From contig CAXHJY010000262.1 in assembly GCA_964016885.1 (NCBI GenBank), positions 1 to 64,000 of the forward strand: a DNA stretch of 64,000 bases. Direction: 5' to 3'. Under the pieces are notes generated by a model. That model searched no databases, was not told the origin of the DNA, and was given only the letters and a program-made list of their open reading frames with translations. Made by a program: the position numbers and the translations under genes. The stretch is from Eledone cirrhosa (lineage: Eukaryota). Each line of letters opens with the position of its first letter. The first letter of the stretch is position 1. Below, piece by piece: positions 48,506 to 59,046 of the stretch.

Positions 48506-48841
48506 AATATCAGATGACATTGGGATAAATTATTATTTAAAATCTTGGATACATCTCTTCCATTTATCATCATTTGAAGACTAAAACAGAACTTATATAA
48601 CACTGTTTATATAAATCTGTTGTTGAATTACTGTGAAATATTTCCTCAGAACTGAGTTTATTTTCTTCACTATGAGATGATTTTGTATTTTAACTAAACT
48701 TGGATGAAAAAGAAGTTTGTATTATCTTCAGATATTAACTGATATCACAGTTGAGGGAAATATAGAAGATATATTTGTAAGGAATATAATATAAAAAATA
48801 TTACAAGTAAAACATTTGTATATTCTGTTGAAGAAATCATT

Positions 48842-50032
48842 ATGGAAAATAAATTGAGTGAAAAGATTAAATGTGAAACACAATCGAAAATATTTAGTAT
48901 TCCTGGTGAGATGACGAAGGTTAGAGAAGAGAAGCCATATCACTGTGATATCTGTGGTAAATCATTCACTGATAGTAGTGCCTTGACTAGACACAAACGT
49001 ATACATACAGGAGATAAGCCATATCATTGTGAGTTCTGTGGGGTATCATTCTCTCAAAGTAGTGCCTTAACTAACCACAATCGCATACATACAGGAGAGA
49101 AACCATATCCCTGTGATATCTGTGGTAAATCATTCTCTCATAGTAGTCACTTAACTTATCACAAACGTACACATACAGGTGACAGGCCATACCACTGTGA
49201 TATTTGTGGTAAATCATTCTCTCAAATTAGTCACTTAATTCCTCACAAACGTACCCATACAGGAGAGAAGCCATATCACTGTGATATCTGTGATAAATCA
49301 TTCTCCGATAGTAGTACCTTAACTAGACACAGGCGTACCCATACAAGAGACAAGCCATATCACTGTGATATCTGTGATAAATCATTCTCCGATATTAGTA
49401 CCATAACTAGACACAGGCGTACCCATACAGGAGACAAGCCATATTACTGTGATATCTGTGGTAAATCATTCTCTCAAAGTGGTAGCTTAACTACTCACAA
49501 ACGTATACATACAGGAGAGAAGCCTTATCACTGCGATATCTGTGGTGAGTCATTCTCTGAAAGTGGTCACTTAACTAGCCACAAACGTATACATACAGGA
49601 GACAAGCCATATCATTGTGATATCTGTGGTAAATCATTCTCTGTAAGTAGTAGCTTAACTACACACAAACGTATACATACAGGAGACAAGCCATATCACT
49701 GTGATATCTGTGGTAAATCATTCTCTCAAATTAGTCACTTAAATAGCCACAATCGTATACATACAGGAGACAAGCCATATCACTGTGATATCTGTGGTAA
49801 ATCATTCTCTGTAAGTAGTAGCTTAACTACTCACAATCGTATACATACAGGAGATAAGCCATATCACTGTGATATCTGTGGTAAATCATTCTCTGTAAGT
49901 AGTAGCTTAACTACTCACAATTGTATACATACAGGAGACAAGCCATATCACTGTGATATCTGTGGTATATCATTCTCTATGGAAAGTAGCGTAACTACTC
50001 ACAAACTTATACATGCAGAAAAGCAATCATAA
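48842..50032 (+). CDS. Tandem C2H2 zinc-finger protein, 396 aa, 13 fingers
   Basis: Repeated [21 protein letters not shown]; paralog of 24406-26220; AATAAA at 50363. Confidence 0.92.
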
Positions 50033-52699: not shown

Positions 52700-52795
52700 C
52701 ATATATACATATATACATATATATATATACATATATACATATATACATATATACATATATACATATATATATATACATATATACATATATATATA

Positions 52796-54088
52796 TCATC
52801 ATCATCATCATCATCATCAGGTTTAGCGTCCGTGTTCCACGCTTGCATGGGTTTGGACGGGGGTTTTCCCACTTGAGGCAAGAGTGGTTGTCTTGCTCGC
52901 ATAGGACTGTCTGGCGGGTTTTCTACAGTTGGATGCCCTTCCTAACACCAACCACATTTACAGTGTGGGGCTGGGAGGTTTTTACCGTGTTGCCTACACG
53001 GCCACATTACAGCGTGGACTGTCTGGCGGGTTTTCTACAGCTGGATGCCCTTCCTAACACCAACCACATTTACAGTGTGGGGCTGGGAGGTTTTTACCGT
53101 GTTGCCTACACGGCCACATTTACAGCGTGGACTGTGTGTTTTTTGTCGTGACACCTACACGATCTCATTTGTTTCGGCCTGGATGTTGTGGGACCAACAT
53201 AACTTTACATTGAAAGGGGCGGTGTGGGTGGGGTGGAGGTGGTGGGACGGGGGTGTGTTTTGATAGAGGTGCCTACTGACTGTAGTAGGTTTTTACTTTG
53301 TATTTAGGTAAGGCGGGTCTTCTCTATTACTGAGTACCGCCAAAGGTCTCGGTCCAGTGACATTGTCTTGGAGAGGTGTAAGCGTGTGAGGTCGGAATTT
53401 ATCAGCTCGTCCCATGTTTTTCTGGGTCTGCCTACTCCGTGGCTACCGTCTATCTTTATTGCCCTGCACTTTGTTATACAGCTGTCGTCTTTCATGCGCA
53501 TCACGTGACCGTACCAACGTAGCCTTCTCTCGAGTAAACAACATCTGATCCCTCTTATTTCTAATTTTTTCCTTAGTTCGTTTATGCTTTGCCGTTCACG
53601 TATATTACTATTGCACATCCAGCGGAGCATGCAAGCTTCGTTCCTCTCTAGTCTGCGTATATCCTCTGCACACAATGCCCAGGTCTCACTGCCATGCAGC
53701 ATTGCTGTTCGTATGCAGGCATCGTATAACCTGCCTTTCATTTTTAGGGAGAACCCTCTAGCGGCTAATAGTGGTATAAGCTCTCTGAACTTTTTCCATC
53801 CAGTTCTGACTCTAGCTACTGTACTTTCAGAGCACCCTCCCCCACTGCTGATTTTGTCACCCAGATAACGGAAGCTGTCCACTATTTCTATAGAACCCTC
53901 TGCGCAGTTGAAGGAGCTAGTATTTTGTGGGCACTTGCTGCTACTTATTGCACCAGAGCACCGGCCACATGTAAAATCTATGTTCTTAGTTAGCTTACCT
54001 GTGATCCCACTACATCTTTTATGCACCCATACTTTGCATTTGGGACATAAAATGGAGTTTCTACCTACGCCTTTCCTACACACTGAGC
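52796..54088 (-). mobile_element. 5'-truncated RTE LINE (subfamily a) with (GAT)n tail
   Basis: ORF 53304-54083 homologous to 20580-21361; internal ~100-bp duplication in the 3' UTR. Confidence 0.92.
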
Positions 54089-54286
54089 GTCAGTCATACA
54101 AAAGTGAGTTAGAAGCGAAACGAAATTTAATTTCGTTTCGTTATTTGTTTTTATCGTTTCCGCTGAACCGGTGCGTACAATGACTCACGTTCTATGCAAA
54201 TTAGTCTACCCACTACTAATTTTCATAGAAAAAGCATATAACGATATGTGCTTTTACAATTCTCCAGAGAAGCCGGAAGATGGGTA

Positions 54287-54331
54287 AATATTGCTGATGA
54301 GATGTAATAACATCGAAACTAGTCCAATATT
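54287..54331 (+). ncRNA. Minimal type-I hammerhead ribozyme (family R)
   Basis: AATATTG-CTGATGA-GATGT(AATA)ACATC-GAAA-CTAG-TC^CAATATT; predicted cleavage after 54324. Confidence 0.9.
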
Positions 54332-54755
54332 CCTGTCTGGCCCTCTGGGGAATAGAGGAAATGTGTTTCCTTGAAAACTCGTATGACTCTAAAACCCGGT
54401 CCGCCTGTGTGGTTACATACAGACTAGCTGACACTCACTGTAAAGTGTCTAGTGAAAAGCTGAGTACATGTACATATGTATACATGTGTGTATTTATATG
54501 CATACTAATACTTCCGTATACATATGTAGATGTACACTTTAACTTAATTGTTTAAGCGTCAGTCATACAAAAGTGAGTTAGAAGCGAAACGAAATTTAAT
54601 TTCGTTTCGTTATTTGTTTTTATCGTTTCCGCTGAACCGGTGCGTACAATGACTCATGTTCTATGCAAATTAGTCTACCCACTACTAATTTTCATAGAAA
54701 AAGCATATAACGATATGTGCTTTTACAATTCTCCAGAGAAGCCGGAAGATGGGTA

Positions 54756-54800
54756 AATATTGCTGATGAGATGTAATAACATCGAAACTAGTCCAATATT
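54756..54800 (+). ncRNA. Minimal type-I hammerhead ribozyme (family R)
   Basis: Identical to 54287-54331; predicted cleavage after 54793. Confidence 0.9.
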
Positions 54801-55040
54801 CCTGTCTGGCCCTCTGGGGAATAGAGGAAATGTGTTTCCTTGAAAACTCGTATGACTCTAAAACCCGGTCCGCCTGTGTGGTTACATACAGACTAGCTGA
54901 CACTCACTGTAAAGTGTCTAGTGAAAAGCTGAGTACATGTACATATGTATACATGTGTGTATTTATATGCATACTAATACTTCCGTATACATATGTAGAT
55001 GTACACTTTAACTTAATTGTTATATATATATATATATATA

Positions 55041-57005
55041 GATTATTTTGACATTAAATCCCGTAAATATCCACCTAGAATTAAAGACATGGCCAACTTC
55101 GAATTAGACCTTGTTAATCTAATTAGTGATATCAAATTTCGTAAGTACAATAATAATTTTCAAACTAAACTTTCTCACGATATCTCTAATTTTAGAAATT
55201 CTACAAACACTTTCGTTCTTTCTGATAAAACTAAAAACCTCTTTGAAGTTAATAGTAATTTGTATAACCAACTTTTAACTAATAGTATTACCAATAAATA
55301 TCAATTAACTAATAATAATAGCTACAATACTATCAATAAAGAAGCTAAAGAACTAGCTAGTTCTTTACAAATAGATAACCGGATTGAAAGCTTAGCTAAG
55401 CGTAAAGCATATATTACCCTTAAAGACCATAAATTGGACTTTACTAATCGACCTAGTTGTAGACTGATTAACCCGGCTAAATCCGAGGTTGGCCTTGCTA
55501 GTAAGAAAATCTTAAGAAAAATAATTCTCCAAATTAGAACTAACACTGTCCTTTCACAGTGGCTAAATACTTCCTCTGTTATTTCTTGGTTCAATAATAT
55601 ACAAGGTAAAAATAAGTGTAGATTTACCCAATTTGATATTGTCGATTTTTACCCTTCTATTACTGTTTCCTTATTAACTAAAGCCTTAGATTTTGCAAGA
55701 CCCTTCATTAATATCTCCAAATTAGAAGAGGACATTATCTTTCATGCTAGAAAAACTTTACTTTTTACTAATGATAATATTTGGGTTAAAAAGTCAAACC
55801 CTGAAAACTCTTTCGATGTTGCAATGGGTTCCTATGACAGTGCGGATGTGTGCGACTTAGTAGGATTATTCCTTCTGCACACACTCAAAGAGAAATTTCC
55901 GTCCCATAATATCGGTTTATACCGTGATGACGGATTAGCAGTTTCTCATACCACCAACGGCCATAATCTTGATAAATTCCGTAAAGATTTAATTAGTACT
56001 TTTGCTAATCTTAACCTTAAAATTACTATAGATATGAACCTTACTAATGCTAACTTTCTTGATATTAATCTTGATCTACTTACTGCCTCTTTTAAACCTT
56101 ATCATAAACCTAATGAAAATCTTAGGTATATACACAAAGAGTCTTGCCATCCCCCTATAGTTTTTAATAATCTTATTCCTAACATTAGCCGTAGGATTTT
56201 TACCTTATCTTCGTCTATAGAGATTTTTAATAAAGCCGCCCCTTATAAAACAGCGGTTTTACAGAAAATATTTCTTATTTACCTACTCCCCCCCCCCCCT
56301 AAAACTAACCATAATAACAGGAAAAGGAAGATTATTTGGTTCACACCCCCCTTCTCTCTAAATGTCAAAACTAATGTAGGAAGGAAATTCCTTGAACTAT
56401 TAGACAAACATTTTCCTCCTATTCATAGATATTATAAGATTTTTAATAGGAATGTAGTTAAGATCAGCTACTCTTGTTGCCCATCCATGAAGTCCAAAAT
56501 CACCAGTTCAAACCGTACGAGGATAAATCCAGGATGCAGTTGCAGGAAGCCGGATGAATGCCCATTGCAGGGTAAATGTAACACAAAATCTGTCGTTTAT
56601 GAGGCTAAGATAACGCCAGTTATCAACAACCAGCCAGCCAGAAGTGAGCGATATGTCGGTATGACCCAGGACAGGTTTAAAACCAGATTTTACTCACATG
56701 TCGCTTCTTTTAAACACTCAGATAAACGAACATCAACGGCCCTCGCAAGTAAGGTATGGGATCTCAAGGATAGTAATATCCCGTACTCTATTGATTGGTC
56801 TATATTAGACCATTCGAGGGAGTACCAAAGGGGCACAAAGAATTGTTCTTTGTGTACCACAGAAAAGTATAGGATTTTGCTAAACTTGAGAGCCACTTCC
56901 GCTTGCCTTAACTCAAAGACTGAGATCTTCAGATGCTGTCCTCATCTGAAATCGCATCTGATCTGTAACTGGATTGACACTCCTACGATAAATCAACCGC
57001 CTTGA
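55041..57005 (+). CDS. Penelope-like element polyprotein (RT plus C-terminal GIY-YIG endonuclease), 5'-truncated
   Basis: RT motifs QFDIVDFYPSI, AMGSYDSADVCDL, YRDDG; Cys linker CSCRKPDECPLQGKC; VVYEAKI..RYVGMTQDRFKTRF; C-terminal CSLC..CCPH. Confidence 0.9.
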   Translation, partial: DYFDIKSRKYPPRIKDMANFELDLVNLISDIKFRKYNNNFQTKLSHDISNFRNSTNTFVLSDKTKNLFEVNSNLYNQLLTNSITNKYQLTNNNSYNTINKEAKELASSLQIDNRIESLAKRKAYITLKDHKLDFTNRPSCRLINPAKSEVGLASKKILRKIILQIRTNTVLSQWLNTSSVISWFNNIQGKNKCRFTQFDIVDFYPSITVSLLTKALDFARPFINISKLEEDIIFHARKTLLFTNDNIWVKKSNPENSFDVAMGSYDSADVCDLVGLFLLHTLKEKFPSHNIGLYRDDGLAVSHTTNGHNLDKFRKDLISTFANLNLKITIDMNLTNANFLDINLDLLTASFKPYHKPNENLRYIHKESCHPPIVFNNLIPNISRRIFTLSSSIEIFNKAAPYKTAVLQKIFLIYLLPPPPKTNHNNRKRKIIWFTPPFSLNVKTNVGRKFLELLDKHFPPIHRYYKIFNRNVVKISYSCCPSMKSKITSSNRTRINPGCSCRKPDECPLQGKCNTKSVVYEAKITPVINNQPARSERYVGMTQDRFKTRFYSHVASFKHSDKRTSTALASKVWDLKDSNIPYSIDWSILDHSREYQRGTKNCSLCTTEKYRILLNLRATSACLNSKTEIFRCCPHLKSHLICNWIDTPTINQPP

Positions 57006-57250
57006 ACTCCTTCTCTGCTCTTTACTTTTGCTACGGTTTTTATTTTGCCGATTCTACCTTCTGTACTCTTGTATATTTAAAATTTTTTTCTCCCTTACCT
57101 CCCCTTATATTTTTACCTCCTCTTAGCCCCCCCCCCCCATATATTCTTTTTGTTTTGCCCTTCACATACCTATGTGTATGTGTATGTATTTTTGTGTGTA
57201 TATATATATATATATGTGTATGTATGTATATATGTACGTATGTGTTTGTG

Positions 57251-57317
<67 letters not shown>

Positions 57318-57401
57318 GTGTGTGTGCGTGTCTGTATGTGTGTATATTATTGTATATTTGTGTGTGTATATGTATGTATATGTGGATAAACCAGGCTTTT
57401 T

Positions 57402-57459
57402 TTCATTCTGAAGATTGAAGGAAACTTTTTTTGCTTTTAAGAAACCTCTGGTGAATGGA
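57402..57459 (+). ncRNA. Hammerhead-like motif (family A, internal, GTG site)
   Basis: TTCATT-CTGAAGA-TTGAAG..CTTTTAA-GAAA-CCTCTGG-TG-AATGGA. Confidence 0.6.
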
Positions 57460-57915
57460 TTAATTGCCTTGTATGGCTTTATTACTTTACTACTATATAT
57501 ACGTTTATGTAAGGTTCATTTGTCTTATCTAATACTGAGCTTTACACATACACACATGTATATGTGTGTGTGTATGTGTATGCATGTGTGAATGTGTACG
57601 TGTATGTGTGTATATATATGTATGTGTATATATATGTATATATATATATATGTGTATGTATATGTATATATGTATATGTATATATGTGTATATGTATGTG
57701 TATGTATGTATATGTGTGCGTGTGTATTTATTTATTTTTATGTATGTGTGGGTTTGAGTGTGGGTGTGTGTGTGTATGTGTGTGTGTTTGTATTTAGTTG
57801 TGCGTTCTTTTGATATATACGTATTTGCATGTGTATAATTGTTTAGCTATGTATGTATATGTGTGTTTACGTATTTATATGTGTGTGTGCGTTTATATTT
57901 TTATATTTTTGTATG

Positions 57916-57954
<39 letters not shown>

Positions 57955-58343
57955 ATATAATTACATATACATGTGTGTGTTTATATTGTATACGTGTACG
58001 TGTTTGTGTATGTATGTGTATGTACGTGTTTATGTATTTGTATATGTATATTTATGTGTGAGAGTGTGTGTATGTGTTTACTATTTCGTACGTATGTATA
58101 TGTGCTTATGTGTGTATTACTTACCACGCGTGTCTGTCCTGTTAGCTGGGGCATGTATCGCTGTCAAAAATTTGTTAATATATATTTATATATTTTTTCT
58201 TATATTTATTTGCGTGTGTGAATATGTAGTGGAGTGCATTCATGTATGTGTATGTATGTACGTTGTATGTTTGTGTGAATGTATGTATGTGTGTATATAT
58301 ATGTGTGTGTGTATGTGTATGCTTGTACACACACATGTGTGTG

Positions 58344-58378
<35 letters not shown>

Positions 58379-58751
58379 GTACATGTATATATATGTGGGT
58401 GTGTATGTGTGTGTATGTGTATATGTGTGTGTGTGTGTGTGTGTATGTATGAATGTATGTATGTGTATATGTGTGTATATATGTGTATGTGTGTGTAGGT
58501 GTACGCTCTTTATATATATATATATATATATATGTGTATATGTATATGTGTATGCGTACATTTATATATGTGTATATATGTATGTGTGTAAGTATGCTTT
58601 TGTGTTTTTTTTTTTTTTTTGTTTTTTTTGTGTGTGTTTGCATGTGTAGTTTTATTTTATTTTTCCTTTCCTTCTCCCTTTTCCAGCCTCACTTTCATAT
58701 AGATTGCATTTTTGTTTTTAGAATCCATATTCAATAAACAAACCAGGATTT

Positions 58752-58809
58752 TTCATTCTGAGGATTGAAAGCAAAACCTTTTGCTTTTAAGAAACCACTG
58801 GTAAATGGA
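58752..58809 (+). ncRNA. Type-I hammerhead (family A, terminal, GTA site)
   Basis: TTCATT-CTGAGGA-TTGAAAGCAAAA(CC)TTTTGCTTTTAA-GAAA-CCACTGG-TA^AATGGA. Confidence 0.82.
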
Positions 58810-58901
58810 ATAATTGCCTTATGTTGTTTATTACATAATAATAATATATATATATACATATATAATATAAGATCAAAAGATGGTTAAAGGAGTTCAATAT
58901 A

Positions 58902-58968
58902 TTTTATTATGCGCATTTCAAAAACAAACATCATCAAACAATAATATTTGTGTTTTCATCAGATAAAA
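58902..58968 (-). ncRNA. Type-I hammerhead (family B) within pLTR fragment 58860-59035
   Basis: Same as 30412-30478 apart from a change near the stem II loop. Confidence 0.8.
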
Positions 58969-59046
58969 CAGGAGAACATGATATGAAGGCTAAAAAAACA
59001 CTTGTTGATAGTGCAGTTTTAAATCAACATATCATGATATGGGGCA

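Follow-up and report, generated by a model that had tools for sequence, protein, structure and literature searches.

The genome of Eledone cirrhosa carries what is probably a new family of non-LTR retrozymes, an element class that is itself known from animals (Cervera & de la Pena, 2020, PMC7229834; Li, Clavereau & Pollet, bioRxiv 10.64898/2026.07.22.740005; published work is cited here from the accessible portion of each text), and its copying is likely done in trans, by internal priming at two sites, with the reverse transcriptase-endonuclease that Hydra-clade Penelope-like elements (PLEs) encode. Judged by its sequence, the repeat has the features of a non-LTR retrozyme and its insertions have the anatomy of endonuclease-bearing PLEs. 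Our confidence in a circular template, and in any single PLE as the partner, is lower than our confidence in PLE-driven two-site priming.

The window (the whole stretch of 64,000 nt that was analysed, positions 1 to 64,000 of contig CAXHJY010000262.1) contains a dimer of the retrozyme on the plus strand at 54086-55021, where a preliminary description had placed two near-identical units; unit 1 (54086..54554, 469 nt; Tandem Repeats Finder, period 469) and unit 2 (54555..55021, 467 nt, terminating at a fixed end that we call A) differ by one mismatch. Each unit contains a type I hammerhead motif on the plus strand (54287..54331, core start 54294, and 54756..54800, core start 54763), made up of helix I (AATATTG/CAATATT), the core CTGATGA, helix II (GATGT/ACATC) with the loop AATA, GAAA, a palindromic ACTAGT helix III and GUC. 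The GUC sites end at 54324 and 54793, exactly 469 nt apart as had been proposed, and cleavage 3' of these two positions is predicted to release a self-cleaved monomer of 469 nt (54325..54793, plus strand), whose predicted fold pairs both ends and which may be the precursor of a circle. Helix III forms poorly inside a single motif, and between two copies of the 10-mer it can form 6 bp. A search of Rfam gave a match of the dimer to Hammerhead_HH9 (E 1.6e-6, under the gathering score) and zero matches at the gathering threshold across the 64-kb window, and no frame of 100 aa was found inside the array.

On its 3' side the dimer abuts a (TA)10 target run (55021..55040), beyond which, as previously noted, a PLE frame in the same orientation starts at about 55041. 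On the 5' side, unit position 1 is fused to an internal part of a minus-strand LINE fragment (52795..54085), which we take to be of the RTE type, with 3 nt common to both; the window dimer is thus a one-armed insertion. A 5' junction lying exactly at unit position 1, beside end A, and joined to non-TA DNA recurs in loci L171 and L046 as well as at window position 54086, and site A might double as a hotspot for stops or breakage. A second insertion in the window (15240..16716), belonging to a subfamily with a 465-nt unit, has two arms and (TA)n on both flanks; its minus arm (15240-16380) ends at a second fixed position, B (unit position 69, window 15240), and its plus arm (16378-16716) ends at A. 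Both plus-strand copies in the window, with 3' ends at 16716 and 55021, do stop at the same sequence, AACTTAATTGTT, followed by (TA)n.

Genome-wide, a 33-nt hammerhead pattern gave 3,068 matches in the 3.0-Gb assembly, compared with 0 for the reversed control. Junctions of end B with TA number 2,334 or more, and those of end A with TA, counted for one subtype only, number 319; end B is no rarer than end A. We scored 37 loci chosen by likeness to the 469-nt unit, 38 by likeness to the 465-nt unit and 30 in position order on C1, leaving out of the counts two duplicated segments (L043, L064), overlaps (L188-L190) and one double-counted array (L065/L300); the final sample comprises 104 insertions, the two in the window included. 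The full unit is 458-472 nt long in 356 of 357 cases and is tandemly repeated up to about 17 times, the arrays being short and dispersed with a median arm length of 758 nt. None of the 104 insertions shows an LTR layout.

The ends of these insertions are not random. End A corresponds to unit positions 459-469 (54544..54554, plus strand) and is a putative start of reverse transcription, its copy at 55013-55021 being the actual 3' end of the dimer; end B (unit positions 64-69, 54618..54623, plus strand) is a second putative start, internal in the dimer and terminal in other insertions. Between A and B lies a tail of about 70 nt (54555..54623, also 54086-54154, plus strand), with a hairpin at 54114-54142. 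Scoring of 172 outward 3' ends placed 73 at A, 88 at B and 11 elsewhere; the A and B windows together span 17 of the 469 positions yet hold 161 of the 172 ends. A TA run adjoins 152 of the 161 fixed ends, compared with 1 of the 11 others, which bears out the TA targeting proposed earlier, and a short T/A likeness to the target is seen at both A and B junctions. Insertions outside TA carry duplications of 13, 14 and 16 bp (3/3); these lengths are upper bounds that include junction overlap.

Two outward-facing arms joined 5' to 5' make up 71 of the 104 insertions: 60 with both ends fixed, 9 with one irregular end and 2 running off the locus. Among the 60, A is paired with B in 59 (P ~5e-17), and the lone A/A insertion (L290) is a four-armed compound of two subfamilies. 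Position-ordered genome lists, a largely independent check, gave the same picture: an outward-facing B junction lies within 10 kb of 18 of 22 A junctions (chance ~0.004), A/A neighbours number 0, and the one B/B pair consists of two separate insertions. The earlier proposal of a fixed priming site is therefore upheld as to fixed positions and not as to a single site, because there are two, one per arm. Miniature two-armed insertions of about 70-130 bp also occur (junction coordinates C1:2248577-2248649 and C1:15499366-15499498), each with one A and one B end.

The same footprint is left by PLEs resident in this genome. The element next to the dimer is a 5'-truncated copy of a family that we call A (55041..58845, plus strand), with a frame open to 57005, a hammerhead at 58758-58809 (plus) and its own end, A', followed by (TA)n. 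The window copy has lost the first 52 codons, and RWK with them, as well as its 5' repeat; a full-length copy (L204, 709 aa) has RWK, DKT, YRDD, CxCX5C, YVG and CxxC in this order, the YVG motif presumably representing GIY-YIG. The adjacent frame (P0001) gave no Pfam match and has over 2,000 relatives. RWK, DKT, CxCX5C and CxxC are given as marks of the Hydra clade, for which (TA)n insertion is noted too (Craig et al., 2021, PMC8557442), and by its motifs, hammerhead and (TA)n insertion we provisionally assign the adjacent frame to a Hydra-clade PLE; an identity as Naiad was rejected, as the frame has its nuclease-like motif downstream of the RT motif and the element bears a hammerhead. A degenerate hammerhead-like motif (57408-57460, plus), nearly identical among copies, accompanies the hammerhead of family A, the two related motifs being separated by 1.35 kb within a 3' region that is long and rich in microsatellites.

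In two-armed copies of family A the two ends are paired in 14 of 15 cases (by eye, the exception being L200, and leaving out L213/L214, which lie 12.5 kb apart), with a tail of about 67-70 nt between them. Family B, a PLE with 51% protein identity to family A, has a 66-nt tail and paired ends in 5 of 5 copies, and further PLE ends among the loci have tails near 90 and 165 nt. Since two families leave an equal footprint, the footprint indicates Hydra-type machinery rather than one family, and since the A/B footprint of the retrozyme is that of resident PLEs, the retrozyme likely borrows PLE enzymes. In vitro, too, a PLE tail was bounded by two internal start sites (Frangieh et al., 2024, PMC11167929). 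Soon after the first end, several element tails (L303, L192, L175, L061) contain an ACTC...GAGTG(CT) hairpin, with GCTC...GAGC as the counterpart in family A (L101); this hairpin is a possible shared protein-binding signal. Many Hydra-like PLE families, with 30-60% protein identity to P0001 and differing tail lengths, are clustered in the same TA-rich loci (L042, L043, L050-L056, L060, L066, L160, L184, L185, L329, L342; window 30927-31343).

The preliminary description had seen a candidate mobiliser in the PLE beside the dimer. The footprints of families A and B support mobilisation of the PLE type; the part of the proposal that singles out the neighbour fares less well. Family A does have the TA target and the end pairing in common with the retrozyme, its tail is of near-equal length, it is young (40 scored places are 100% identical over 156 nt), and both window arrays lie near a family-A piece. 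It lies within 1.5 kb of only 2 of 100 retrozyme loci, however, compared with 1 of 25 and 0 of 20 in controls, which is no enrichment; conversely, 0 of 74 family-A loci contain the retrozyme repeat, and among 25 loci for the family A 5' region the repeat is found upstream at the window locus only. No likeness in sequence was found either: a tail motif that by eye seemed common to both (TTAAGC...CATACA) is at chance level (P 0.38), and no PLE with the retrozyme tail occurred among the fetched loci, where family B and other PLE families were compared by eye. Moreover, a 66-nt tail is found in family B as well, and the window copy of family A is 5'-truncated. Family A is thus best seen as a neighbour with the same target, and we lean against its being the specific mobiliser. 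A different kind of kinship would make the unit the amplified terminal repeat (pLTR) of an unsampled autonomous PLE, as in Xenopus, where 24 of 57 retrozyme families match known elements, nearly all of them PLEs (bioRxiv 10.64898/2026.07.22.740005); the unit has the parts of a pLTR, a hammerhead and then two ends. Yet no unit was seen to run straight into a PLE frame in 100 repeat and 30 sister-family loci, a search that favoured whole units and that a parent could escape, and the PLE hammerheads found here differ from that of the unit; we regard this origin as conceivable and somewhat on the improbable side.

Conservation within the unit was compared between the two subfamilies. As the preliminary description had it, the monomers have diverged (44 substitutions and 12 gap columns over 473 columns) and the 45-nt hammerhead differs by a single base, in loop II (AATA/AACA). 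The selection on catalysis that was read from this is supported for the ribozyme fold, whose core is nearly invariant and whose helices I and II carry compensatory changes, and is not supported in the sense that the hammerhead would be the most conserved part of the unit. At the unit-wide rate for this pair, one difference or fewer in 45 nt has P = 0.024, which is mildly unusual, and a non-ribozyme window at 54209-54210 equals the hammerhead in pairwise conservation. Across 12 cluster representatives, variable sites amount to 8/45 in the hammerhead (P 0.11), 5/60 in the tail (P 0.0003, for a window picked after the data were seen) and 126/469 in the whole unit; the hammerhead ranks 167 of 469 windows, and the tail, rather than the hammerhead, is the most conserved part. 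In the same representatives 12 of 13 hammerhead core positions are invariant, and the variant position retains a permitted cut triplet. Of the predicted pairs, 6 are broken by the substitutions between subfamilies, where the null model gives a mean of 15.8 (0/5000 as low), with no two-sided compensatory pairs between the 469-nt and 465-nt subfamilies, and the predicted circular fold of the unit (-155 kcal/mol, z -9.8 against 60 shuffles) is retained between them. On the sense strand of both main subfamilies A>G outnumbers T>C (21 vs 8 and 26 vs 17), and position 264 shows A>G flips in scattered units of several arrays; the A>G excess is a weak hint of A-to-I editing or of an RT hotspot.

A relaxed pattern revealed a sister family about ten times larger (31,046 matches vs 35 in the control), with colinear units of 422-538 nt that are ~65-70% alike to those of the retrozyme family; the layout of the predicted circular fold matches, and by eye the ends lie at positions matching A and B. 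Among 16 hammerhead sequences drawn from the two families, pairing holds in 92.9% of cells, compared with 35-49% for slid partners, and 6 of 15 pairs, in helices I and II, are altered on both sides; the covariation counts are not independent events, because there are essentially two lineages. The base of helix II is mismatched in 11 of the 16. A predicted 8-bp long-range helix (54381-54388 with 54561-54568, plus strand) spans 54381..54568, takes in the start of the tail and has compensatory changes in the sister family. Sister units (e.g., L326-L355) also carry an internal (TA)n hairpin.

What the enzyme copied can be narrowed down from the arms. A cut linear monomer would permit at most 228 nt from A and 299 nt from B, and copying past the cut site is seen in 143 of 161 arms (420 passes; the fraction is inflated because loci were selected for whole units or a hammerhead) while 124 of 160 are longer than one unit; the template was therefore a circle or an uncut multimer. 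The 5' ends do not cluster at this site (6/160, P 0.18 at the cut), and 14 arm 5' ends fall at position 1, partly as alignment artefacts. Between these two templates neither homogeneous arrays nor read-through of the cut site decides, so that rolling-circle copying is not separable from an uncut linear multimer on these grounds; private array-wide variants, tried as a proof of rolling-circle copying, were found in 2 of 31 arrays only (strict definition) and do not discriminate. Higher-order repeat patterns in L067 and L162 fit later DNA duplication and, with the scarcity of private variants, count against a circle; variants of period 2 in L067, considered as the mark of a dimer circle, were rejected, the pattern being irregular and equally fitting later duplication.

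The same PLE machinery could have worked on an uncut linear multimeric transcript, with the circle unneeded. Uncut RNA is the dominant substrate of the PLE PAc, whose hammerhead mutants inserted normally in vitro (PMC11167929), and 8 of 9 Xenopus retrozyme dimers gave no cleavage in vitro (bioRxiv 10.64898/2026.07.22.740005), both of which count against a circle; homogeneous source arrays would give homogeneous daughters (differences of 0.9 and 1.75 within arrays vs 4.1 and 3.0 between), and long arrays can grow by duplication, as in L067. A ribozyme that did nothing but cut the template would be a cost to such copying, however, and yet its core and helices are kept across families 30-35% apart; the predicted fold joins the monomer ends in both families, and other animal retrozymes accumulate as circles (PMC7229834). 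The retained ribozyme and the pairing of the monomer ends favour the circle, towards which we incline slightly, giving the uncut multimer a substantial minority share. The second arm, for its part, could stem from fold-back DNA synthesis on the first cDNA instead of a second priming on RNA, given that rare variants are often common to both arms (L048, L058, L169, L183) and that self-priming has been proposed for inverted junctions of PLEs (PMC3846280); but either arm may be the longer, the arms traverse several A or B sites before terminating, and PAc, in vitro, starts at two sites and elongates both strands of the target (PMC11167929), so we hold fold-back to be unlikely. Ordinary satellite DNA, spread by recombination at the DNA level and with an incidental hammerhead, would account for the tandem layout and some local duplication; it is hardly credible in view of the dispersed short arrays, fixed ends, A/B pairing, target duplications and covarying helices.

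Two-site priming by a PLE enzyme on a circular template could then proceed as follows. An array would be transcribed, and its hammerheads are predicted to cut, probably as dimers through the palindromic helix III, to give the 469-nt monomer, whose fold would juxtapose the ends for ligation into a circle. A PLE protein would bind the structured tail region and nick both strands of the (TA)n target some 13 bp apart. One nicked strand would prime at A and the other at B, ~70 nt downstream, a footprint that is observed and from which we infer the chemistry; from each start, synthesis would run back along the RNA over a variable distance, past the cut site and in many cases beyond one unit. The copies would join 5' to 5' into the outward-facing arms seen in the genome, one tailed and one not, with one-armed insertions arising too, and local duplication may later enlarge some arrays, as part of the loci suggest.

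Like the non-LTR retrozymes of animals, the Eledone family is built of tandem repeats that are a few hundred bases long, do not code for protein and contain a type I hammerhead in every unit; GC is low, the predicted circle is highly self-paired, duplications exceed 4 bp, and PLEs coexist in the genome (PMC7229834; bioRxiv 10.64898/2026.07.22.740005). It shares a weak palindromic helix III with the axolotl HHR_Amex1, and the dimer pairing of helix III fits the dimer-acting type of amphibian hammerhead (PMC7229834). RNA and circles have been demonstrated for published retrozymes, whereas for the Eledone family they are predictions from DNA sequence; Xenopus families resemble PLE terminal repeats, whereas the Eledone retrozyme is unmatched among the PLEs tested. 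The insertion anatomy described here (fixed ends, tail, inverted arms, TA target) does not appear in the accessible text of the animal retrozyme papers, in which the mobiliser is hypothetical, and in the literature searched we found no retrozyme described with a double set of fixed ends, with a tail or with inverted arms; supplements, subscription papers and repeat databases may contain such a description or the family itself.

The closest likenesses in anatomy are with PLEs. Those of the Hydra clade have the (TA)n target, a hammerhead, an inverted 5'-truncated arm and a tail at one end (PMC8557442); the retrozyme differs from them in having no reading frame, a tail of ~70 nt compared with 30-40 bp, and tandem units up to ~17. 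In Poseidon PAc of Anolis, as in the retrozyme, two internal starts bracket the tail, the target is AT-rich and both target strands are cut and extended; PAc shows no difference between strands in the start site, whereas the arms of the retrozyme almost always use different sites, and the retrozyme is a non-coding RNA whose starts are found 228 and 299 nt downstream of the ribozyme cut (PMC11167929). Other non-coding elements that travel with PLE enzymes and insert as several head-to-tail copies are the non-autonomous Chlamys elements such as MRC1 (PMC8557442) and the pLTRs mobilised in trans in Adineta (PMC3846280), but these share 3' sequence with their autonomous partners, and most Chlamys elements are without hammerheads.

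The mobilising enzyme of animal retrozymes, and the priming of a circular RNA that has no 3' end, are described as open questions (accessible parts of PMC7229834, PMC7761336 and bioRxiv 10.64898/2026.07.22.740005). The present family bears the footprint of a PLE tail at base resolution and in large numbers, and now that a target, both start sites and a few Hydra-type proteins from the same genome can be named, the question of the mobiliser is directly testable in vitro. The near-strict pairing of A with B, which the two autonomous families also show, makes more precise the earlier remark that a tail is commonly found at one end only, and constrains models of PLE integration. More tentatively, and in our view doubtful as a whole, the retrozyme may be an independent viroid-like circular RNA lineage, with ~34,000 ribozyme copies in two families and no origin from a resident PLE terminal repeat, which hijacks Hydra-clade proteins by RNA shape alone; a PLE dimer would start on the circle at a pair of sites set by structure, a different one for each target strand and never the same one for both, and roll through the ribozyme. 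If true, this would be direct genomic evidence for priming and integration of animal retrozyme circles, and for an obligate asymmetry in the two-strand priming of PLEs.

Several further observations were made in the window. The 3' end of a family-A copy, from 16851 onward on the minus strand, lies opposite the first array with a TA run between the two, and inverted C-terminal coding fragments lie at 18301-18680. A TA-flanked element with a hammerhead of long helix II is present at ~58860-58970 and near 30472, on the minus strand; it recurs in many loci and has two ends too. Two arrays with a period of 84 bp (24406-26268 and 48755-50032) read as tandem C2H2 zinc fingers, and that at 48755-50032 matches zinc-finger proteins.
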